Part shown: piece by piece, positions 7,917 through 22,624 of the stretch
Numbering within the stretch: position 1 is the first letter of the stretch
Layout: the number at the start of each line of letters is the position of its first letter
Assembly: GCA_005191425.1 (NCBI GenBank)
Contig: SUPR01000046.1
Span: 1-25,690 of the forward strand
Source: Candidatus Helarchaeota ASGARD archaeon Hel_GB_B
GTDB taxonomy: Archaea > Asgardarchaeota > Lokiarchaeia > Helarchaeales > HEL-GB-B
Length of the DNA stretch: 25,690 nucleotides
Direction of reading: 5' to 3'
The notes under the pieces: model-generated
The model's input: only the letters and a program-made list of their open reading frames with translations
Told to the model about the DNA's origin: nothing
Database searches by the model: none
Program-made: the position numbers and the translations under genes

Positions 7917-11090
<3,174 letters not shown>

Positions 11091-11159
11091 TTTAATCATT
11101 TCTTTTTATTCAATTCGTTTTATTTTAACTTTAGTAAGTAGTTCTCATGTTTGAAATTC

Positions 11160-12017
11160 TTAAGAATTAATATTATTACTAAGAATTCTGATTATTCTGG
11201 GATGAATATATTCGCATATTTTTATATTAGAACCACCATGTGTATTTATCAGATATTTTCCATCACATACATTTTCTGCACAGTTTTTTACCAATTTTAC
11301 AAGTTCTAAAAAGAAATTCTTAGATAATCCACGACTACCATAATCTCCTAAGGCGGTATCATGTCCTAGTAAATGTACGATCAAGTCAGGCTGAAATTCC
11401 TCAACTCGTCTAATAAATTCATTTTTTACTTTTGATAAATATTCCGTATCATTAGTAGAATATCCAGAATCAATACAAATTTTCGTACCATTGTCTTCAA
11501 TTTTATTTGTATCGCAAAAACATACATGTAATATGTTATGTTTTCCAAACGTAATAGCTCTTGTACCGTTTCCATGGTGCGAATCGGTATCGAGAATTGC
11601 AATTTTAAAATTAGTAAATTTCTGTTCTAAGTTTGCAATTATACCACCACTAACAGAAGCATAAGTTCCACCCCATCCATTATCAGGTCCTGCATGATGC
11701 CCAGCAGCGACACCAAAACACAGAGCATTATGAAATTCGTTTTTCATTATTCTTTCTGCAGCATCAACACATCCACCAACAGTATATCTAGCACCTAAAT
11801 AATCCCATCTCCTTTTTAAATATTCAAAATATTCTTTTGTATGAACTTTTAACAATAATTCTTCAGAAATTAAAGGTGGTTCAATTAATCGAACATTTTT
11901 TAAGTTTAATTCGGATTCCATTACTTTAGGAAAATTTTGAAATTTATTATTAATGATATCCCAAATTTTCTTGTTAAATAATTCATGAAAGTATACAGCT
12001 GTTATATTTAAAACCAT
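11160..12017 (-). CDS. Histone deacetylase/AcuC-family Zn hydrolase, divergent
   Basis: LLLKVHTKEY, GHHAG dyad, DTDSHHGNGT and GHD Zn ligands, FQPDLIV. The ATG at 12017 is preferred over the GTG at 12026, which is part of a GTGAT SD-like motif. Confidence 0.85.
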   Translation of the reverse strand: MVLNITAVYFHELFNKKIWDIINNKFQNFPKVMESELNLKNVRLIEPPLISEELLLKVHTKEYFEYLKRRWDYLGARYTVGGCVDAAERIMKNEFHNALCFGVAAGHHAGPDNGWGGTYASVSGGIIANLEQKFTNFKIAILDTDSHHGNGTRAITFGKHNILHVCFCDTNKIEDNGTKICIDSGYSTNDTEYLSKVKNEFIRRVEEFQPDLIVHLLGHDTALGDYGSRGLSKNFFLELVKLVKNCAENVCDGKYLINTHGGSNIKICEYIHPRIIRILSNNINS

Positions 12018-12435
12018 AAAAATCACTAATTATTATTAATTTTTGATAATATAATTTATAAAGTTCCAATTAATTTAAAGAATTCTACACATGTAATGCT
12101 TATTCAAAAATTGTTTAAATATGATGCATAATAAATATCTGTAACTTTTTATTAATCGCATAAAAAAATATATGTTAAATTTAAGTAAAAAAATAAAAAA
12201 ATAAGAGAATATATTCTATAAAAGAATTTACAGATATATTCATTTTAAAAATAGATATCTCAGAATTAAATAGTAAAATATCGTATATATTTTTCAAATT
12301 TCTGAATAAAATTAATAAAATTTTTGTACTATTTAAAAAAAGATTATTGGTTTAATTTAATAATAAAGACAAATGAGCTTAAAAGTATAAAAATTAATTA
12401 AGACATTAAAAGATAATAATTAAAAAATATGAAAG

Positions 12436-12711
12436 ATGATCAAAATGGCAAAAATTGAAGTCAAAAAACCAACGAAAGAAGAGATTGAAGAAGCTAAAAA
12501 CTGGGGTATCTGGGAAAAGGAACCAAGCGAATTTGATTGGTATTATGACACACCGGAAAGTTGTTATATATTAGAAGGAGAGGTAACAGTTAAAACTGAA
12601 GATGGAGATGAGGTAACTATTAAAGCTGGAGATCTTGTTCACTTTCCACAAGGATTAAAATGTGTTTGGAATGTAAAGAAAAAAATTCGTAAACATTTTA
12701 CTTTTAAATAA
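12436..12711 (+). CDS. Cupin-domain protein (DUF861/cupin_3, EutQ-like)
   Basis: WGIWEKEPSEFDWYYDTPESCYILEGEVTV...IKAGDLVHFPQGLKCVWNV. Confidence 0.9.
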   Translation: MIKMAKIEVKKPTKEEIEEAKNWGIWEKEPSEFDWYYDTPESCYILEGEVTVKTEDGDEVTIKAGDLVHFPQGLKCVWNVKKKIRKHFTFK

Positions 12712-12740
12712 TTTCTTTTATTTTTTAGATTAGATAAAAG

Positions 12741-13313
12741 ATGAGAAAATTAGGAATTTTAAGATTTGGAAATATAGATAATGATTTGATTTTGTTTATT
12801 ACTAATGAATTAGGAAAAATTTTTTCTAATGTATTTAATAAAGTAGAGGTTTTAAAAAAAATAGAAAAAATTCCACCGATTGCATTTAATCAACAAAGAA
12901 ATCAATATAAAGCCCCCTTAATCATGGAAGTCATTCGGTCAAATGCTCTTAATAGTGGTTATGACAAAATATTAGGAATTGTAAATGTCGATTTATATGT
13001 CCCAAACTTAAATTTTATATTTGGACAAGCAGAATTCTCAGAATCAGGGAAGGACACGCGTGCATGCATTATTTCTATAACAAGGTTAATGCCAAGTTTT
13101 TATAAAAACATAGAATTGAATAAAGATTTGGTCAAATTATTATATTTAAGAACCTTAAAGGAAGCTCTTCATGAAATAGGCCATACTCTAGGATTACGAC
13201 ATTGTAATTCATTTAATTGCGTTATGCGGTTTTCAAATTGTTTAGAAGATACTGATGAAAAACCTGCATATTTTTGTAAAAAATGCGCTAAAAAGATTGG
13301 CATTTTTATTTAA
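12741..13313 (+). CDS. amzA: Archaemetzincin (peptidase M54)
   Basis: HEIGHTLGLRHC zinc motif, CVMRFS Met-turn, FCKKC completing the Cys4 site, and RNQY, DLYVPNLNFIFG. Confidence 0.92.
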   Translation: MRKLGILRFGNIDNDLILFITNELGKIFSNVFNKVEVLKKIEKIPPIAFNQQRNQYKAPLIMEVIRSNALNSGYDKILGIVNVDLYVPNLNFIFGQAEFSESGKDTRACIISITRLMPSFYKNIELNKDLVKLLYLRTLKEALHEIGHTLGLRHCNSFNCVMRFSNCLEDTDEKPAYFCKKCAKKIGIFI

Positions 13314-13453: not shown

Positions 13454-14971
13454 TTACAATAAATTTCTGTTAAATATCTGGTATTGCTCATCAAAATTAT
13501 GCGTAGAATTTATAGAAAATGCTTTTTGGAAAAACGCTTGGTCATTAGGATTAAAGTATTTAAATCCAAAATAGTTCCATTTGGTATCAGGATCGAGAGT
13601 AGAGCATAGTAATAATTTATTATCAAGAAAATTATGTATTAGAATTCTAGTTTTCTTTTTAGTATTAATTACACCGTGAATTAAAATATTATCAGATAAA
13701 TTTGAGAAATTATTAGAAAACATAAAATTTATCTGGCTGATATCCAGTCTTTTATTTTCAATTAATTTAGCAATTAAAAAGGCAGCATTTTCATAAAGTT
13801 GTTCATTTGAATTTCCCCAAAGATAAACATGCGAATGCGAAGTATATTCGTCCTTTTTTAGCTTTTTTTGTAAACTATAAGGAGATAATAATTTGATAAG
13901 ATTAAGACCAAGAATATTTTCTGCATCAGTTAAAGTGCCGCCATTTTGGATAAAATCTTGGGAAATCAAAAATTTTATATTATCTTTTGCGTGAAATGGT
14001 GTAAAATATGGAAAATCAGTTCCAAAAAGCAATTTTTCAGACCAAGATCGAGATGCGTTGGGGATATTTTGTTTATACCAATTCATAAATGAGAGAAAAA
14101 AGTCATGTGTCCCCTTTCCGTGGAGCATTGAAATTTCGCCCCAGATATTTGGGTCAGAAATAACTCTATAGACTTCTTCATTTCCAATATAACCCATAGC
14201 ACAATGAGCTACTATTACTTTTAAATGGTTAATTAATTCGGGAGCATTTTTTTTCAATTGATTACGAGTTTTATGGACTAATTCTTGTATGTCAATAATG
14301 GATTGGGCACCTCTTGTATCAAAAATTACTGGAATAGAGTTTTTAGCAGCAGTTATTAATACTTTTACTGCGAAGTCAGCAGATATTTCGTCAGTCCAGC
14401 CATCGGATCTTGGATGGAGTTTTAGACCTCTTAATCCTAGAGTATTAATTGCATAATCTACTTCATCAGGGGCTTGTGTCTGCCTTGGGTTTACTCTGCA
14501 ATATCCAATTAATCTCATTGAATTTGGGAAATGCGTACTAAATCGAGCAATATTCAAATTTGATGCCCGGTATTGTGCTTCAGGTTTATTATCTCTGAAG
14601 GTATCTTGAAATGGAAAACAAACACCATGGTCTATTAACCATCCACCGTTCATTTTATCAAAAACAGTAGAATAATTGCTACTATTTCTTTCTTTTAAAA
14701 ATTTGAAAACATTATAAATAAATGGCATTGGAATAAATTTAAATTCAAAACGGTGGACTTTTCCATTTATAGATAACTGATAGTTTAATACACTTTCTTT
14801 TTCTACTTTACTCTGAGTTTCAATATAAAAATTATAAGTACCACCAGGAGCTAAAGGGTTCATGTTACTAACACTATCAATATCACTACCTAAGTGAGAA
14901 TGAGCATCAATAACAATTATTTTTTTGAAAATAACTGAATTGTCAGGCAAGGTTATTTTTACTAGAATCAC
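13454..14971 (-). CDS. Amidohydrolase (amidohydro_2-type TIM barrel) with insertion and ~140-aa unassigned C-terminal domain
   Basis: DAHSHLG, GLRGLKLHP, VIVAH and LLFGTDFPY. The start is placed at GTG 14971 (AGGTG motif upstream, 19 bp gap after the ligase stop) rather than 15022, which overlaps the upstream gene. Confidence 0.82.
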   Translation of the reverse strand: MILVKITLPDNSVIFKKIIVIDAHSHLGSDIDSVSNMNPLAPGGTYNFYIETQSKVEKESVLNYQLSINGKVHRFEFKFIPMPFIYNVFKFLKERNSSNYSTVFDKMNGGWLIDHGVCFPFQDTFRDNKPEAQYRASNLNIARFSTHFPNSMRLIGYCRVNPRQTQAPDEVDYAINTLGLRGLKLHPRSDGWTDEISADFAVKVLITAAKNSIPVIFDTRGAQSIIDIQELVHKTRNQLKKNAPELINHLKVIVAHCAMGYIGNEEVYRVISDPNIWGEISMLHGKGTHDFFLSFMNWYKQNIPNASRSWSEKLLFGTDFPYFTPFHAKDNIKFLISQDFIQNGGTLTDAENILGLNLIKLLSPYSLQKKLKKDEYTSHSHVYLWGNSNEQLYENAAFLIAKLIENKRLDISQINFMFSNNFSNLSDNILIHGVINTKKKTRILIHNFLDNKLLLCSTLDPDTKWNYFGFKYFNPNDQAFFQKAFSINSTHNFDEQYQIFNRNLL

Positions 14972-14990
14972 AGTTAAACACCTGTAAATT

Positions 14991-16415
14991 TTACCAAAAT
15001 TTTGGATAATTTGGTTTTCCATTTAATGGAGAATAAGTAGGATTTACAATACAATTATGAGTCATATATACCAAATCGCCTAATAATTTGAAAGCATCAC
15101 CTTGTCTATAATTGTAAAGGCTTAATTGATATTCAGCTTCTGTTAGGGGAGGGTCTGCCCAATCAACTGATCCATACACTGAAATTATAATTGGGTCAAG
15201 AAAAGGAATTTTTCTTAATGGGACTTTAAAAAACTTTTTTATTGATTTATCTTCACCTATAAATCTAAGCATACCTTTAACAGCATCTTGCATTAATCTA
15301 CCTTCTGTATTAAAATAGCAATCAGCAAAATTTGGGTCTATACTAGCGATTTGGTCACTATCAGCGTCTTCGGTCCTAAAGACTGAGAATAATCCTCTTG
15401 ATATTGCACCAACTCGGTTTTTAACTATAGTGGCTGACCCTACATCGGGAACTTCCCTCATATTTCTAGCTTTAAAAGCAAGTAATTGTAATAATAAAGC
15501 TATACCAATTCTTCTTGCGATAGAGGTTTGTGCATCAGAAATTCTTGTCTCGATTGTCCCAAAATCAGTGTATGGAAATATATCCTGTTGTCTGGCGTCT
15601 TCTAATGATGCTTTTTGAATAGTATTTAAAAAGAAATCGATATTATTTGGATCGGTCATATATGGGATGTAGTGTTTAGGATCATTTAAAGAAAGCATGG
15701 TATCATTTTTCTTAAGTCTAATACTACGAACACAACCGGGACATGCATAACGCTTCCCTATTATTTTGATAGCATCAGTAGGATGGCCATTCATAAGAGA
15801 GGAATTTACCGACAATGCCAAGATGTGTGGTAAAAAATTTCTAAACATATTGTATATCTTGATTTTTTCATAATCGTCCTTGAAGGTCCCCATATGACTA
15901 TGGTCAGCGAAGGTAAGTCCTCTAAAATATTCTTGCTGTAATGGATTAAATCCAGCAGAAACTAAGAATAATTCTTTAGGGAGTACCAATTCAGCTATTA
16001 ATAAAACAGCTTGAGCCCACCAAACTAGTTCTTCAATATATTCACATGGTGGAGTAACACATTCTAATATATAAGTGATTGCTGCAACATTTCCATCTCT
16101 TCCAAAAATTTCGATATCAATTGGTTTTCCATGAAGTTTATAGCTTAAAGTTAAAACATCTCCTTTTTCTTCGTTATATGTTATCATTGGTGTATCAGCA
16201 ATTTTTTTCTCGATTATTGATGGGATATTTTCGTATTCAATCATATGAATTAAAATGTCTCTAGCCTGTTCTACCATTTTTTTCATGAGAAAGACCATGT
16301 CATCGCCTTTAAGAAATTGGCCATTTTCGTCTAGCATTTGGATTTCCATTTCTATTCCATGACTAAAAGGTAAAGGAATTGGTTTTTTAGGGAATTCCCA
16401 TTTTTGTTTGCTCAA
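14991..16415 (-). CDS. Carboxylate-amine ligase, glutamate-cysteine ligase family 2 (GCS2/YbdK-like)
   Basis: HGIEMEIQ (ExE), LECVTPPC, LVSAGFNP, FADHSHMG, ILALSVNS and DIFPYTDFGTIETRISDAQ align by eye to the GCS2 motif series. TTG start with GGAG upstream. Confidence 0.85.
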   Translation of the reverse strand: MSKQKWEFPKKPIPLPFSHGIEMEIQMLDENGQFLKGDDMVFLMKKMVEQARDILIHMIEYENIPSIIEKKIADTPMITYNEEKGDVLTLSYKLHGKPIDIEIFGRDGNVAAITYILECVTPPCEYIEELVWWAQAVLLIAELVLPKELFLVSAGFNPLQQEYFRGLTFADHSHMGTFKDDYEKIKIYNMFRNFLPHILALSVNSSLMNGHPTDAIKIIGKRYACPGCVRSIRLKKNDTMLSLNDPKHYIPYMTDPNNIDFFLNTIQKASLEDARQQDIFPYTDFGTIETRISDAQTSIARRIGIALLLQLLAFKARNMREVPDVGSATIVKNRVGAISRGLFSVFRTEDADSDQIASIDPNFADCYFNTEGRLMQDAVKGMLRFIGEDKSIKKFFKVPLRKIPFLDPIIISVYGSVDWADPPLTEAEYQLSLYNYRQGDAFKLLGDLVYMTHNCIVNPTYSPLNGKPNYPKFW

Positions 16416-16455
16416 ATTTATTACTCCTTTTTAATTTTTTAAATTTCTTGTGCAC

Positions 16456-17544
16456 TTATTGAAAAATGTTAAAAAATTTTAATAAAAGAGTTTTATTATC
16501 TAATAAATTAGTTGTAAATATAATATTAATTACATTTATATTCATATTTTGAGTTATTTTTTCTAAATCTTCATACAAAATTCCATGACTAAATAATTTA
16601 TCATCAATTATAATTTCTATCTCATTCTTTAATCCATCATCAATTTTTTGAATGATTTTCTTATAATTTTCTTTATTATCTTTTCCAATAATTATTGAAG
16701 GCATTTTACCAATGGGTGATATAAACCCAACATTGAATAAATATAATTGTGTAATTTCAGGAGGTAATTGGCTTTTAACAAAATACTCAAAGGCATTTTT
16801 TATCACTAAAGCGTCTTCTTTAGAGTATTCTTGGTCGATGGGGTAAGTTATATAATAAAAAAGTTTTTTTCTTAATCTTTTTAAATTGAAAAAAATATCA
16901 CGGAGAAATTGAAGTTCTTGACCTCCAGTAGTGTCGATCAGGTCAGGATTGTAAAATAAGATGGTGATCAAATGAGAATGAATATTTTCACCAATGGGGT
17001 TAGCATCGCCACCAATATTAATAAAATGATTTACTTCTTTTGGAGCAGCTGATGTATCTATTACATTAAAATAAATATTTTTTATTAATATTAAATTTTC
17101 AATTATTTGTTCCTTAAATACCTCTTTTTTAATTGTTTTCGGGACATTAGGTTGTGCAATTTGTGGTGTACTTATCCCATTTAAGCTGTTTGGCTGGTTT
17201 GTCTGAATAGGCGGGACATAATTTGGGCTTGGAACCTCAATAATAGATTTGATTCTCTTCTTAAATAACCCAATAACTTTAATTGATAAATTCTGAAGTC
17301 CTGGTTTTAATGGCTGAACTTTTATAGATAAATCTTTTACTTGATTTACATCAAGATTAAATTCTGGTTTTTCGGATATTTCACATTTTAAATTTGGATA
17401 TTGAAATTTCAATATATATTTCGATGCTATATTTCCAGTATTTTTTATTTTTATATCAATCGCATATTTATTTTTAGTCTGAATTAAGCTCATCGGTATA
17501 TTTACAATTTCAAGTTCACAGTCCTGTATGATCTGCTCATTCAT
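16456..17544 (-). CDS. Hypothetical protein: N-terminal Ig-like beta-sandwich, P/Q/N-rich linker, C-terminal alpha/beta domain
   Basis: IKIKNTGN...FNLDVNQVKDLSIKVQPLKPGLQNLSIKV is a CARDB/Ig-like pattern; PNYVPPIQTNQPN linker. Start uncertain (17544, 17553 or 17601). Confidence 0.65.
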   Translation of the reverse strand: MNEQIIQDCELEIVNIPMSLIQTKNKYAIDIKIKNTGNIASKYILKFQYPNLKCEISEKPEFNLDVNQVKDLSIKVQPLKPGLQNLSIKVIGLFKKRIKSIIEVPSPNYVPPIQTNQPNSLNGISTPQIAQPNVPKTIKKEVFKEQIIENLILIKNIYFNVIDTSAAPKEVNHFINIGGDANPIGENIHSHLITILFYNPDLIDTTGGQELQFLRDIFFNLKRLRKKLFYYITYPIDQEYSKEDALVIKNAFEYFVKSQLPPEITQLYLFNVGFISPIGKMPSIIIGKDNKENYKKIIQKIDDGLKNEIEIIIDDKLFSHGILYEDLEKITQNMNINVINIIFTTNLLDNKTLLLKFFNIFQ

Positions 17545-17710
17545 AAAAAACATTTCCGATTTATATTTCCTAAATACTTGAATAAACAGACAAAAGAGCA
17601 ATATGATATAAAAAAATTTAGTAATTTTTTAATGCGTGTTTACAAGGAAATTTAAGATATTAGTTTTTGAGAAGTTAATATACTTTTTAGGAAAATATCA
17701 TTTTAATAAT

Positions 17711-19768
17711 TTAATGGCGACCACCTTTCAATTTTACGACTAAATCTCGTGCTCTTTTAGAGTACCAAATCAACAATTCGCCCATATCATTAGGTTTAAA
17801 ATATTCTCCGCCGCATTTTCTGGCGACATCGTTCATTAATTCATCATTACAGTTTCCTATTCCGACTATATAAAAAACTAAATTTGGATTGGGTACGAAA
17901 TATTTATTTACATTTTCTACAAATTTATTTCCATCGGTAGGATGTCCATCAGTTAATAATACAATCATACAAGGTTTGTCAGTGCCATCAATTGAATTAT
18001 ATGCCTCTAATACGCCTGCAGCTTCTTCAATTGCTTCACCCATATTTGTAGCCATTCCTTGTGCTTCACCAATTTTCGTAACTATTTCATTAGCTGCGAC
18101 TTCTAAAATTCCATGTTTTCCACTAGCTGAATCAAAAAATGGCATACCTTCACCAAAATCTATTACTTCAGCAACATCCGCAAAACGGATAATAGAAACT
18201 TTTTCACCGAAACCTCTTCCTACTTTTTCAGCTAAAAACAATAGTGCAGCAAATGCTGCACCAAGTCTTCGAGGAACATTGGTACCATCTTTAAAATAAC
18301 TTAAAAATTTGGTAATATTTGTTCCGCTCATTGCAGCATGGATACCTTCAACTGCTGGTGCAATATTTTTTACAAACATATCTCTAGCTAACATTGATGA
18401 TGAAATATCAATAATCAAAATAGCATTGAACGTGACTAAGCCTTCAGGCCTTAAATTTAAGCTGGACGTCATTTTTACTTCAGCTAAAATTTCACCAGTA
18501 AGATCAGGAATGCTAGATATAATTTTAATAGCAGCATTCGCATCTTTCCACCTTAATTTTAATCCTTTAAAAATTACATATTGATTTAACCATTCTTTTA
18601 ATACTTCAGTATTATTCCTGATTACAGTTAGTGTGTCCCAAAGGTTTTCTCCAGAAATCGGACTAATTCCTAATTCAACGTTTTGAAGCGGAATAACGTT
18701 AGACATGTTTTTTCTTACAGTAACTTCTGTTCCACCTATACCAGCAGCTTCAAATATTTCATCTGGAATTTTTATTATATTATCAGAAAGCGTCCTATTT
18801 ATTGTTACTCTTCCTGCACCCCAAGCACCAGTTAAATTATCTTCAAACCTTATAATATCATTTTCTTGTAAATCAAGAGTCAATAAATTTCGTTCAGATA
18901 ATTCAATTTTCCCGCTATCGATTCCAGTCCCTATTTCAACTTCCAACTCAATTTGTTCTTTCTTTACAATGGGAGGTTCAGCTTGTGGATTGAATACAAT
19001 TACTTGTGTTGAAAGGATATCAGCTGTTGAATAAGTTTCTTGGTCCATCCATATCTGGTCATCTTGCACCATGGCAATTTGTACTCTTGCTCCGCCAAAT
19101 ACTCCAGGTCTTGTAGGATCTTCATACATAATGGGATCGTTATTGTTTAATTCTAAATATTGGGCAACATTTTGACTAATTTGGACTAACCCATTCATAG
19201 GTGTCTGAGTTAATACAATATTTAATGTCAGAGTTTTTTCAGGCTTCTGGACTTGAGAAACTTGTGGACGAGTCGGTGTAGTAGATGGTATTTTTGTGGT
19301 AATTTTTTGTGTACTAGGTGATGGAGTGGGAATTTGTTGAGAAGGTATTGAAGAAGTAGTATAACTCGGCTGCGACGGTGCTGGAGGTGGCGGAGGAGCT
19401 GGTGCCGGTGGCTTCGGAGCTGATACACTCGGATAACTCGGCTGCGACGGTGCTGAAATATTAGCTTGAGAAGATGGAGTGGAAATAGTTGGATTACTTT
19501 CTTTTTTAGAAATAGTAAATGATCCCATCCATTTGATATTTTTCTCATATTGAGAAAAAAGATTATTATCAATAAATGCCATATAATCGTTACAATCTCC
19601 GATTTCTATAATAGCTTCACCAGATATTCCAGCAGTTTTATCATAGTAAATAACAGGGGTTCCATTTGTAACTTGAAGGTTATTAGCATTTGTTTGATTT
19701 ATAATAATTTTATTACCTAAATTTTCTCGTGGTTCAATATTTAGAAATATATCTACCATTTTTTTCAT
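17711..19768 (-). CDS. Multi-domain protein: 3x Cdc48-N-like double-psi barrel repeats + Cdc48 N-subdomain-2-like region + vWA domain
   Basis: vWA with intact MIDAS (LIIDISSSM, ATNMGEAI, VLLTDG; FYIVGIG, GGEYF). Three internal repeats at about aa 5-88, 179-259 and 272-353 resemble the VAT/Cdc48 N-domain. Pro/Ser linker at aa 89-178. Confidence 0.8.
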   Translation of the reverse strand: MKKMVDIFLNIEPRENLGNKIIINQTNANNLQVTNGTPVIYYDKTAGISGEAIIEIGDCNDYMAFIDNNLFSQYEKNIKWMGSFTISKKESNPTISTPSSQANISAPSQPSYPSVSAPKPPAPAPPPPPAPSQPSYTTSSIPSQQIPTPSPSTQKITTKIPSTTPTRPQVSQVQKPEKTLTLNIVLTQTPMNGLVQISQNVAQYLELNNNDPIMYEDPTRPGVFGGARVQIAMVQDDQIWMDQETYSTADILSTQVIVFNPQAEPPIVKKEQIELEVEIGTGIDSGKIELSERNLLTLDLQENDIIRFEDNLTGAWGAGRVTINRTLSDNIIKIPDEIFEAAGIGGTEVTVRKNMSNVIPLQNVELGISPISGENLWDTLTVIRNNTEVLKEWLNQYVIFKGLKLRWKDANAAIKIISSIPDLTGEILAEVKMTSSLNLRPEGLVTFNAILIIDISSSMLARDMFVKNIAPAVEGIHAAMSGTNITKFLSYFKDGTNVPRRLGAAFAALLFLAEKVGRGFGEKVSIIRFADVAEVIDFGEGMPFFDSASGKHGILEVAANEIVTKIGEAQGMATNMGEAIEEAAGVLEAYNSIDGTDKPCMIVLLTDGHPTDGNKFVENVNKYFVPNPNLVFYIVGIGNCNDELMNDVARKCGGEYFKPNDMGELLIWYSKRARDLVVKLKGGRH
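19361..19455. repeat. Exact 23-bp direct repeat pair (19361-19383, 19433-19455) flanking a polyproline-coding GC-rich tract
   Basis: ataactcggctgcgacggtgctg occurs twice and encodes APSQPSY on the minus strand; hand count 61/95 G+C over the span. Confidence 0.9.
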
Positions 19769-19797
19769 CTTTAAATATTTTACAATATAAAAATAAA

Positions 19798-20238
19798 TTA
19801 TCCGAATATTGATTTTAATCGATCTTCGGGTTTTTTAACAAGATCACCAAGAATCTTATCAAAAATGGGAATAAATTCATCATATTCTGAGAGGTCTCTT
19901 GATAAGTCAATCGACCCATATTTATCGATAAATTCTTCAATTATTTTTGTTAATGCGCGTTTTGCCAATTTTAAATTAAGTTTTTTGTCCCCTATACAAT
20001 AAGAAATAATATTTTCTGTTTCTGTTTCATCTATCCGATGAGTTAAAAGAACAATTTTAAAATTTTTCATACTAAATGATTCTATTTCATCTGAAAAAGC
20101 TTGAGCAGCAAATGAATTCAATGCACTTAAGAAACCACTTCTAAGAATAGGATCTACTGGCATTGAATGTTCTTCATAATATTGTTTTGATATTAAGGGG
20201 ACACCATTATTGATTATTCCTAATTCATAGATTACCAA
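19798..20238 (-). CDS. Stand-alone longin-domain protein (Asgard eukaryotic-signature type)
   Basis: Beta-beta-alpha-beta-beta-beta-alpha-alpha pattern: IYELGIINNGVPLI, DPILRSGFLSALNSFA, IESFSMKNFKIV, IISYCIGD, LTKIIEEFIDKY, YDEFIPIFDKIL. TTG start with GGAG upstream. Confidence 0.8.
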   Translation of the reverse strand: MVIYELGIINNGVPLISKQYYEEHSMPVDPILRSGFLSALNSFAAQAFSDEIESFSMKNFKIVLLTHRIDETETENIISYCIGDKKLNLKLAKRALTKIIEEFIDKYGSIDLSRDLSEYDEFIPIFDKILGDLVKKPEDRLKSIFG

Positions 20239-20613: not shown

Positions 20614-21360
20614 TTGAGCAATGGAGAGATTTACGATTTGAGTAATGATAAAATAAAGTTGCTAGTTTCACCACGATCAAAAGTCGAAGCAGAGGAATGT
20701 ATTAAAGCGGAAGTTGATATTATTGATATAAAAAATCCAGTCGAAGGTAGTTTAGGTGCAAATTTTCCTTGGATTATTAAGGAAATTTTAGAGATTGTTC
20801 CAAAAAATATACCAGTAAGCGCAACAATCGGAGATCTACCAGACCTCCCGGGTACTGCATCTCTTGCTGCTCTGGGAGTTGCAACATGTGGGGTCTCATA
20901 TATTAAAGCAGGTATTAAGGGCCCTAAGAATATTGAAGATGCAATTAATTTAATGAAGAAAATAAGTAAAGCAGTTAAAAGTTATAATAAAAATATAAAA
21001 GTAGTTGCTGCCGCTTATGCAGATTATAAGCGATTTGGGACGATAAATCCTTTATTAATCACAGAAGTTGCCCAGAAAGCAGAATGCGATGTTGCTATGA
21101 TCGATACCGGGATTAAAGACGGAAAAGGTCTTTTTAATTTTCTAAATACAGATGATTTGAAAAAACTGATTAACGATGGCCATGAGAAAAATCTAGAAGT
21201 CGCTTTGGCTGGTTCTCTAAAGGAAAAAGATATAGTCGTTTTGAAAGATTTGGCGCCAGATATTATTGGAGTAAGAGGGGCTGCTTGCGAAGGATATGAC
21301 CGATTAAATGGATCCATTAAAAGTAGTAGAATTAAAGTACTAAAGGAGTTATTGGTCTAA
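20614..21360 (+). CDS. mfnB: (5-formylfuran-3-yl)methyl phosphate synthase (4-HFC-P synthase), methanofuran biosynthesis
   Basis: KLLVSPRSKVEA, DIIDIKNPVEGSLGANFPW, PVSATIGD, YIKAG, YAD, AMIDTGIKDGK, ALAGSL, PDIIGVRGAAC. Confidence 0.93.
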   Translation: MSNGEIYDLSNDKIKLLVSPRSKVEAEECIKAEVDIIDIKNPVEGSLGANFPWIIKEILEIVPKNIPVSATIGDLPDLPGTASLAALGVATCGVSYIKAGIKGPKNIEDAINLMKKISKAVKSYNKNIKVVAAAYADYKRFGTINPLLITEVAQKAECDVAMIDTGIKDGKGLFNFLNTDDLKKLINDGHEKNLEVALAGSLKEKDIVVLKDLAPDIIGVRGAACEGYDRLNGSIKSSRIKVLKELLV

Positions 21361-21361
21361 A

Positions 21362-22624
21362 CTAATTATCTTTATTAAAGGTATCAGAATATTTTTTAGC
21401 AAACCCATATAAACTTTTAATTTCATTGTAGGATAATTTATCAGTTTCAAAAATTACATGTTCAGTATCATAATGATCCCAATTCTTATCAATTATTTTA
21501 ATATTAAATACATCATTTCCTTCATCAAATAATCTTGAGCCGGGATAAGGAGTTGCAATAAAAAAGTCAATTCTATCTTCCCCAGGGATGAGTGGTAATT
21601 TTTCAATAAATTTAATAGTTTTTTCAAAAGATTTTTGAGAATCACCTGGTAATCCTATTATAAAATAGCATTGAACAGCAATTCCTGCTTTTTTAGCATT
21701 TGAAATTCCGGATTTAATTTTATTAAGTGATTGAAATTTTCCGTTCAATTTTAATAAATTTGTATCTGCACTTTCTATTCCAATTGCAATAACTTTACAT
21801 CCAGCCTTTGCCATTTCGCGCGTCATTTGATACGATAATTTATCTCCTCTGAGTTCTGCACCCCAAGGTATATGAACATTATATTTATTTATTAATTTAC
21901 AAATTTCTAATGGAATATCCGAATAAATGTTTATGTTATCATATAAATTTATGAACTGATATCCAAGGTTTTCTAAATCAGCCATTTCTTTTACTATATT
22001 TAGAGGATTTCTGACCCGGACATTAGTAAAAAGTTTTTGTCTGACGCAAAAACTACAATTGAATGGGCATCCTCTATTAACAATAATTGAAGCTACATCA
22101 TAATGAGTTGGTATAATGTTTTTTCTATCAGGGAATGGAAAAGAATCCACATCAAAAATCTTTGAGAACCCATTTGATAAAACTTTTTTACCATTTCTAT
22201 AGGCTAATCCCTTTGTTTTTCTATAATTGTTATTTAATAAATGATACAATTGAAACAAAGAATATTCGCCTTCTCCCAAAATTATGAAATCAATATTAGA
22301 CTGTGAGCTGAGAATTTCCTTCCACATAAAAGAAGCGTGTGGACCACCCATCACGATCTTACTATCAGGCGATTTAGTTTTAATATAATTTATCGTTTTT
22401 AATGCAACATTATATGTATTAGTGAGACAGGTAATCCCGATTAATGGTGGTTTTGACATCAAATATGAATTAAAAAGCGCTTTATCATTTGTATCAATTA
22501 CTTTAACTTCTAGCCCCTTCATTCTTAAATATGTAGCCATTGTTAATAATCCTGAAGGAGGTTCTCGGTTATATGATCGTTTTGTTAATAATTCGGTACC
22601 TGGATTTAATAATAAAATGTCCAT
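21362..22624 (-). CDS. Cobalamin-binding radical SAM protein (class B type)
   Basis: N-terminal B12-binding domain (PPSGL, IVMGGPHAS, GEGE), NRGCPFNCSFC (CxxxCxxC), IGIESAD, FIIGLPGDS, TPYPGS. Confidence 0.92.
   Translation of the reverse strand: MDILLLNPGTELLTKRSYNREPPSGLLTMATYLRMKGLEVKVIDTNDKALFNSYLMSKPPLIGITCLTNTYNVALKTINYIKTKSPDSKIVMGGPHASFMWKEILSSQSNIDFIILGEGEYSLFQLYHLLNNNYRKTKGLAYRNGKKVLSNGFSKIFDVDSFPFPDRKNIIPTHYDVASIIVNRGCPFNCSFCVRQKLFTNVRVRNPLNIVKEMADLENLGYQFINLYDNINIYSDIPLEICKLINKYNVHIPWGAELRGDKLSYQMTREMAKAGCKVIAIGIESADTNLLKLNGKFQSLNKIKSGISNAKKAGIAVQCYFIIGLPGDSQKSFEKTIKFIEKLPLIPGEDRIDFFIATPYPGSRLFDEGNDVFNIKIIDKNWDHYDTEHVIFETDKLSYNEIKSLYGFAKKYSDTFNKDN

Follow-up and report, generated by a model that had tools for sequence, protein, structure and literature searches.

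A Cdc48/NSF-type N-domain joined to a vWA domain in an Asgard archaeal ligase-hydrolase gene set

Introduction

What does the N-domain of Cdc48-type ATPases do in a protein that has no ATPase? The question is raised by a gene on contig SUPR01000046.1 of Candidatus Helarchaeota archaeon Hel_GB_B (assembly GCA_005191425.1), from which a stretch of 25,690 nt was analysed in full (termed the window; AT-rich, with a G+C content of about 28%). The open reading frame (ORF) at positions 17711-19768 of the minus strand translates without a stop into 685 amino acids (aa), matching the coordinates named in a preliminary description made from the letters of the sequence, in which the protein was read as a Cdc48-type N-domain amplified three times and fused to a von Willebrand factor A (vWA) domain. 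We find that the C-terminal 420 aa form a conserved core, in which a complete N-domain is directly followed by a vWA domain with a competent metal ion-dependent adhesion site (MIDAS), and that this core, a GCS2/YbdK-type ligase and an Amidohydro_2 hydrolase together make up a conserved set of three genes. The explanation we favour, at a probability of roughly 0.55, is that the protein serves this ligase-hydrolase gene set as a non-enzymatic, cytoplasmic binding or scaffold protein, because it consists of two binding modules without a catalytic domain, is linked to the two enzymes by gene order, and occurs in fusions. The cofactor-binding domain of Cdc48, NSF and PEX1 is here reused without the motor, and the gene set represents an unstudied but conserved enzyme module, present in archaea related to eukaryotes, that could be a new protein-modification system.

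A complete Cdc48/NSF-type N-domain precedes a vWA domain

Modelled alone, aa 268-445 reached a predicted local distance difference test score (pLDDT) of 87.9 and a predicted template modelling score (pTM) of 0.80. The model shows a double-psi beta-barrel (subdomain Nn) followed by a beta-clam subdomain (Nc) and aligns with the complete p97 N-domain over all 178 columns (E = 1.4e-10; TM scores 0.69/0.72), which bears out the earlier proposal that aa 272-443 constitute a complete Cdc48 N-domain. In the AlphaFold2 model of the entire 685-aa protein (input alignment of 51 sequences; mean pLDDT 80.9), aa 358-441 likewise appear as a beta-rich unit that comes after a barrel and is succeeded by an alpha/beta domain extending to the C-terminus. 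The same N-domain (CDC48_N plus CDC48_2) is found in Cdc48/p97/VAT, NSF/Sec18 and PEX1; in contrast to these proteins, a vWA domain here replaces the AAA+ rings, and two barrel-only copies and a disordered linker precede the N-domain.

The relationship is less direct at the level of sequence. When the CDC48_N profile was applied, as the preliminary description had advised, the 685-aa protein itself gave no Pfam match at E up to 1, and the connection was made through short paralogues instead. A PF02359 scan of the protein's own genome did not recover the window, the long-form N-domain profile found nothing relevant among PDB sequences, and the third barrel alone and Nc alone were insignificant against Cdc48 N-domains (hhalign, 10% and 1%, respectively). 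Two short paralogues, however, exceed the Pfam CDC48_N cut-off (35.7 and 38.1 bits versus 35.1) and align end to end with aa 272-681 (30% identity, E = 7e-47). The N part of a core alignment of 15 sequences, the window's protein included, matches 32 canonical Asgard Cdc48 N-domains (hhalign 97.3%, E = 2.6e-11) over 144 columns, extending into the second subdomain, and it also matches VAT-N (1cz4) in the PDB (E = 0.0017). Judged from these family profiles, the region is homologous to canonical Cdc48 N-domains, a relationship that becomes clear only because of the short paralogues.

At the point where the D1 AAA domain would start, the sole Pfam domain found in the protein begins: VWA and VWA_2 (PF00092, PF13519) match aa 450-663, just above both cut-offs. 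VIA-align of the full model returned vWA matches only, among the 50 matches listed, and by sequence the closest solved structure is that of ArnB, a vWA protein from Sulfolobus (5a8j, E = 0.002). The MIDAS residues D454, S456, S458, T574 and D607 are complete and are invariant in 51/51 long-form orthologues; MIDAS is also kept in 15/15 members of the wider core alignment. A motif scan of the 685-aa protein found no Walker A pattern, and the vWA domain occupies the position of the AAA+ D1/D2 domains. Pfam, MIDAS and motif scans agree with the claim that a MIDAS-intact vWA domain begins where the ATPase would be expected. Other intracellular vWA proteins, namely Rpn10, TFIIH p44/Ssl1 and Sulfolobus ArnB (vWA2), carry no Cdc48-type N-domain: Rpn10 has ubiquitin-interacting motifs (UIMs), p44 has zinc fingers, and ArnB works with an FHA protein and kinases.

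Upstream of the core, the preliminary description had recognized three mutually alignable repeats (R1 to R3, with R3 being the Nn barrel of the N-domain), and these are found again both by BLASTP (R1 versus R2, E = 5e-6; R2 versus R3, E = 1e-7) and by hhalign with sub-alignments from the 51 orthologues (R1 and R2, 97.0%, E = 1e-10; R1 and R3, 96.9%, E = 1.7e-10, 82 columns; R2 and R3, 99.0%, E = 2.3e-18, 81 columns). In the AlphaFold2 model, aa 6-88, 180-259 and 272-353 each show strand-strand-helix-strand twice over, the order of a double-psi beta-barrel, a point on which the earlier proposal had been left to stand or fall. The N-domain profile additionally picks up R2, just upstream of R3, in five related genomes (E = 1e-7 to 6e-6), and in the orthologues the R1 region matches Molydop_binding in 33/51 (best E = 4.5e-9) and, weakly, CDC48_N in 22/51 (best E = 9e-4). 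By these alignments the three barrels are homologous. The triplication is limited to the barrel, with Nc following R3 only, so that a full N-domain is present once; what had been described as an N-domain amplified three times is a threefold Nn barrel and a single two-subdomain N-domain. Between R1 and R2 lies a linker of 87 aa (28% Pro, 21% Ser and 13% Thr, with a short poly-proline run), which is disordered over aa 92-170 in the model (pLDDT <50) and varies from 63 to 241 aa across orthologues. The orthologue alignment also suggests that the true start of the gene may be the second ATG, at aa 4.

The two-domain core is widespread in Asgard archaea

Searches with the profile of aa 268-445 recovered full-length orthologues only in the window's own class, and these align with at least 43% identity. 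In other Asgard families, a second set of matches consists of ORFs of 426-514 aa, and these shorter relatives are N-domain plus vWA alone. The core thus stands by itself, as proteins of 410-500 aa, in many Asgard lineages, and the Lokiarchaeia/Helarchaeota-type class gained two additional N-terminal barrels and a proline-rich disordered linker. Matches to the N-domain profile were present in 58/151 sampled Asgard genomes, and more than 259 close relatives all bear Asgard names. For most of 89 short-form relatives, whose names include Freyr-, Jord-, Sigyn-, Thor-, Hod- and Heimdallarchaeota, precomputed public Pfam calls list PF02359 together with PF00092. The preliminary description had asked whether the architecture might already be annotated and widespread with a known function; it is widespread in Asgard archaea, and public labels of the short-form relatives read only 'VWA domain-containing' or 'hypothetical', so that the proposal stands on this point. 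A literature search found no paper describing the protein family or the ligase-hydrolase-vWA gene set.

Among 1.84 billion protein representatives searched, 96 (at 50% identity) reach E = 1e-30 or lower, and by length these fall into cores, C-terminally extended cores, long forms and fusions of about 880 aa. So far the protein is almost exclusively Asgard, and the 685-aa form is among the most strongly conserved Asgard-restricted proteins of the window. A few family members (P0186, P0187 and P0164) carry other labels (Zixibacteria, Bathyarchaeia and Bathyarchaeota), and they are probably mis-binned contigs.

The core gene is linked to a ligase and a hydrolase

Clustering of neighbours at 16 loci of the gene showed that two families recur beside it over distant lineages, Amidohydro_2-like proteins about 500 aa in length and a GCS2-like ligase, the latter of 470 aa in the window's class and 990-1400 aa elsewhere. 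Coordinates from genome-wide profile searches for core, hydrolase and ligase were then compared by hand. Outside the window's class, 31 sampled genomes have a hydrolase gene immediately upstream of the core gene and in the same orientation, and in the lineages of these genomes the ligase is found within 3 kb (families f6, f8 and f20) or at 7-12 kb (f7). Single genomes carry two or three paralogous triads, and the three gene families have a near-identical distribution over 27 Asgard families; even in family f23, whose core gene escaped the N-domain profile, BLAST found this gene beside ligase and hydrolase. Moreover, some proteins of 870-890 aa are fusions of a hydrolase-like N-terminal half with an N-domain-plus-vWA C-terminal half.

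In the window, the long three-barrel form is located within an operon in the order longin-like gene, vWA gene, Ig-like protein, ligase and hydrolase; two Helarchaeota relatives (L008 and L057) have the operon as well. Gaps are 29 to 109 bp, apart from one overlap of 32 nt and a distance of 166 bp ahead of the Ig-like gene if its shorter start holds (see below). The ligase-family profile matches the YbdK structures 1r8g and 1tt4 in the PDB at E = 7e-15, and the HxH, K-x-H, H and D metal ligands of the hydrolase are invariant in the family alignment.

A proposed binding subunit for two enzymes

Known N-domains hold peptide motifs of cofactors, and the MIDAS of known vWA domains coordinates acidic side chains. 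If the protein is a binding subunit of this gene set, it would bind the hydrolase, probably the ligase as well, and present a substrate or partner to them. The groove of the N-domain may hold a peptide or protein partner, as it does in Cdc48 cofactor binding, and a carboxylate or acidic side chain would serve as ligand of the MIDAS metal, in the manner usual for vWA domains. The amide bond that the ligase would place on a carboxylate would be cleaved again by the hydrolase.

A predicted complex of the hydrolase and aa 268-685 scored 0.35 (best of three controls, 0.00), with a contact agreement between runs of at least 48% and a partner pLDDT of at least 78. The mark used was reached by 58/80 solved complexes and 2/110 mismatched pairs; of the solved complexes, only 7 of the 80 did so at scores of 0.60 or below, as did both mismatches, so that the result lends weak support.

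This weak score is one of several points that count against a binding subunit. Neither the hydrolase metal ligands nor MIDAS remain in the fused copies, whereas every stand-alone copy retains both; the fusions show structural pairing and not joint catalysis, and their sequences look like inactive scaffold copies kept beside an active pair. The long form of the sister family f2 is 8-53 kb away from the ligase-hydrolase pair or is found on a different contig, and it adjoins Roadblock, gelsolin-like and actin genes, a separation and neighbourhood from which it follows that the long form may have a second or different role. Finally, a small-molecule pathway would yield the same gene linkage.

A bolder version of the binding-subunit explanation is that the three genes are an Asgard-specific, reversible protein-modification system, in which the ligase marks a protein carboxylate through an amide bond, the hydrolase erases this mark and the vWA protein is the receptor or reader. 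It is possible, though we consider it doubtful. Pupylation offers an analogy, and an analogy only: PafA and Dop likewise pair an ATP-dependent carboxylate-amine ligase of GCS2-related fold with an amide hydrolase. The Pup ligase PafA was derived from a GCS2-like precursor (PMC2588565), and a written and erased protein mark is conceivable because of this origin and because the ligase here keeps its signature and the hydrolase its ligands. Unlike in the PafA/Dop system, the hydrolase is an Amidohydro_2 TIM barrel and not a paralogue of PafA, and no small Pup-like gene was seen. If true, ubiquitination and pupylation would be joined by a third, independent counterpart of ubiquitin-like tagging, found in the closest archaeal kin of eukaryotes.

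Alternative explanations

Less likely is that the core is the archaeal counterpart, and possibly the ancestor, of the NTD-SABA part (NTD, N-terminal domain) of DEPDC5/Iml1 (Sea1), with longin or Roadblock partners in a complex regulating small GTPases. Of the characterised proteins known to us, DEPDC5/Iml1 alone has a vWA-fold domain (SABA, similar to the Sec23 trunk) immediately after an NSF/Cdc48-type N-domain, and this subunit of GATOR1/SEACIT, which shares the domain order by fold only, is the closest characterised architecture. Foldseek with the full model listed Sea1/Iml1 and DEPDC5 among p97 matches (8adl_W, E = 5.1e-10; 9o5e_H, E = 6.0e-10; 9xzy, E = 6.3e-9), and residues 3-374 of Drosophila Iml1 align with aa 274-638 (E = 5.6e-11). 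In the same lists, however, p97 N-D1 scores equally well, so that the two-domain alignment does not discriminate DEPDC5, and the best vWA matches are classical MIDAS vWAs rather than SABA. The NTD has been described as resembling the Sec18/NSF N-domain and SABA as resembling Sec23, a combination unique to Iml1/DEPDC5 (PMC8534245).

At the sequence level, identity to DEPDC5/Iml1 is 9-12% with no profile match: the 51 members gave no Pfam IML1 match at E up to 1, and a PDB profile search at E up to 10 showed no DEPDC5 or Sea1 chain among the best 60 of 91 matches. The vWA domain here is classical with MIDAS intact; the SHEN, DEP and C-terminal (CTD) domains are absent, the protein ending 5 residues past the vWA domain; and the gene partners are enzymes and not Nprl2/3. 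No protein of DEPDC5 length matching both domains was among the best 150 matches of the 1.84 billion representatives. The immediate proximity of the longin-like gene, the Roadblock gene adjoining the f2 orthologue and the report of NPRL2-like longins from Asgard archaea (10.1101/2020.10.19.343400) all favour a GATOR1-like setting, but the longin-vWA adjacency is confined to close Helarchaeota relatives (seen in L057, not in L008), there is no NPR2 match, and the window contains no GTPase gene. On the models, then, the core looks like NTD-SABA and is not counted as a member of that family. It is a testable candidate for a prokaryotic origin of the scaffold half of DEPDC5/Iml1.

Quite unlikely, in our estimation, is an actin-cytoskeleton scaffold, in which the long form and its proline-rich linker would act with gelsolin-like, Roadblock and actin-family proteins. 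The composition of the linker would suit such a role, and in family f2 the orthologue has a gelsolin-like gene (weak, E = 0.08-0.1) and a Roadblock gene (Robl_LC7, E = 3.9e-5) on its flanks, and two genes downstream comes a member of the Actin family (L006, L007 and L056). Yet the gelsolin match passes no threshold, the window's own genome has its Roadblock and actin homologues on other contigs, and the short forms, which have no linker, still keep the ligase-hydrolase linkage. The f2 array reads gelsolin-like (weak), Roadblock, vWA, a 135-aa protein (weak ACT and MazE-like matches), a protein of about 300 aa, Actin-family and a protein of about 865 aa (L006:5905-15342, L007:6251-15542 and L056:1-4850). 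Its neighbours were compared with those of the window and are not homologous; in particular, the longin-like protein was ruled out as the Roadblock protein of the f2 loci (hhalign 2.5%).

The preliminary description had inferred an adaptor or decoy for ubiquitin or Cdc48, lacking an ATPase and working in the manner of Ufd1 or Rpn10. The protein does lack an ATPase, and, in favour of such a role, its genome encodes four canonical Cdc48-type ATPases. The adaptor role itself found no support: no UIM or SHP-type tail follows the vWA domain, the roughly 20 loci examined contained no genes for ubiquitin, E1/E2, proteasome or Cdc48, and the gene's conserved partners, a ligase and a hydrolase, belong to other families. 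In the models only a likeness of fold suggests Ufd1 or Rpn10, and we hold this role to be very unlikely.

Least probable of all is a place in small-molecule metabolism, with a low-molecular-weight amide synthesized by the ligase and cleaved by the hydrolase, and with the vWA protein helping in their assembly or in the handling of metal. Free glutamate and cysteine are the substrates of GCS2/YbdK enzymes, YbdK structures are the sole solved relatives of the ligase, and Amidohydro_2 members mostly act on small molecules, but a peptide-binding N-domain and ligase extensions of 650-900 non-catalytic aa elsewhere would be unusual for a metabolic enzyme pair, as would the retention of degenerate fused copies.

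Feature coordinates and genomic surroundings

Table 1. Positions of the vWA gene, its domains and its operon partners in the window, and of fusion proteins on other contigs.
Feature	Coordinates	Strand	Basis or remarks
Whole gene, 685 aa	17711..19768	-	barrel, linker, barrel, Cdc48-type N-domain, vWA
R1, double-psi beta-barrel no. 1, aa 5-89	19502..19756	-	AlphaFold2 model; hhalign to R3 96.9%; Pfam matches in orthologues
Disordered linker, aa 90-176	19241..19501	-	pLDDT <50 over aa 92-170; composition
R2, double-psi beta-barrel no. 2, aa 177-262	18983..19240	-	BLASTP, AlphaFold2 model, hhalign
R3, Nn (double-psi barrel) subdomain of complete Cdc48/NSF-type N-domain, aa 270-356	18701..18961	-	
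Nc (beta-clam) subdomain, aa 357-443	18440..18700	-	aligned jointly with Nn to N-domains of p97, NSF, PEX1 and CDC48A
vWA domain, aa 444-680	17729..18439	-	Pfam VWA and VWA_2, fold
MIDAS codons	D-x-S-x-S 18395-18409; T574 18047-18049; D607 17948-17950	-	
Longin-like gene, 146 aa	19798..20238	-	upstream of vWA gene, 29 bp gap; Pfam Longin E = 0.0035, below cut-off
Ig-like gene	16456..17601	-	Ig-like N-terminal part, Pro/Gln linker, C-terminal part; weak TRAPPC13_C match
GCS2/YbdK-type ATP-dependent carboxylate-amine ligase, 474 aa	14991..16415	-	Pfam GCS2; G-h-E-x-E signature present
Amidohydro_2-type metal hydrolase, 522 aa	13454..15022	-	Pfam; overlaps ligase gene by 32 nt
Fusion proteins, about 880 aa	L044:3391-6063(-), L045:10840-13461(+), L046:10134-12770(+), L050:9492-12107(+), L055:3543-6224(+)		hydrolase-like half plus N-domain and vWA

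For the longin-like protein, the Atlas cluster with Fuz_longin_1 scores 0.91. The Ig-like gene is conserved only in the Helarchaeota-type operon, where its product is 26% identical to the L008 neighbour (E = 3e-24). The TTG start listed for it gives 381 aa; the orthologues in L008 and L057 have 363 aa, that in L057 in the same place, and the protein is probably also 363 aa long, starting at an ATG near 17544. As the 381-aa neighbour, it was considered as a split-off C-terminus of the large ligases, and BLAST and hmmsearch found nothing.

Long ligases outside the window's class are represented by L040:9442-13017(-), L047:9446-12880(-), L051:4148-7849(-) and L054:7618-11817(-). Their C-terminal region of 500-900 aa matches no Pfam family save for one weak match to ASH (Ig-like), in contrast to the window, where the ligase has 474 aa and a separate Ig-like protein is encoded between ligase and vWA gene.

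One candidate for a CDC48_N protein, C121 (L005:1480-3000, plus strand), encoded outside the window in the same genome, proved to be an unrelated 506-aa protein of the AMP/thymidine-phosphorylase type; its weak CDC48_N match (27.8 bits) arises from a barrel-like domain at its N-terminus. In other Asgard genomes, comparable ORFs of about 500 aa also match PF02359 and are false leads in such scans.

DNA near-identical to positions 13454-20238 occurs in several metagenome runs from hydrothermal vents and marine sediments (word shares of 0.79-0.95 in three runs from three studies), none of these runs being on record as RNA. Synteny with the Helarchaeota contig L057 extends beyond the operon (window positions 7917-13313 and 20614-22624). 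It takes in genes for a GH2 beta-galactosidase, a cupin and an archaemetzincin-type Peptidase_M54 on one side, and for a 4-HFC-P synthase, a B12-binding radical SAM enzyme and an HDAC-family protein on the other; the HDAC-family gene lies on opposite sides of the operon in the window and in L057.

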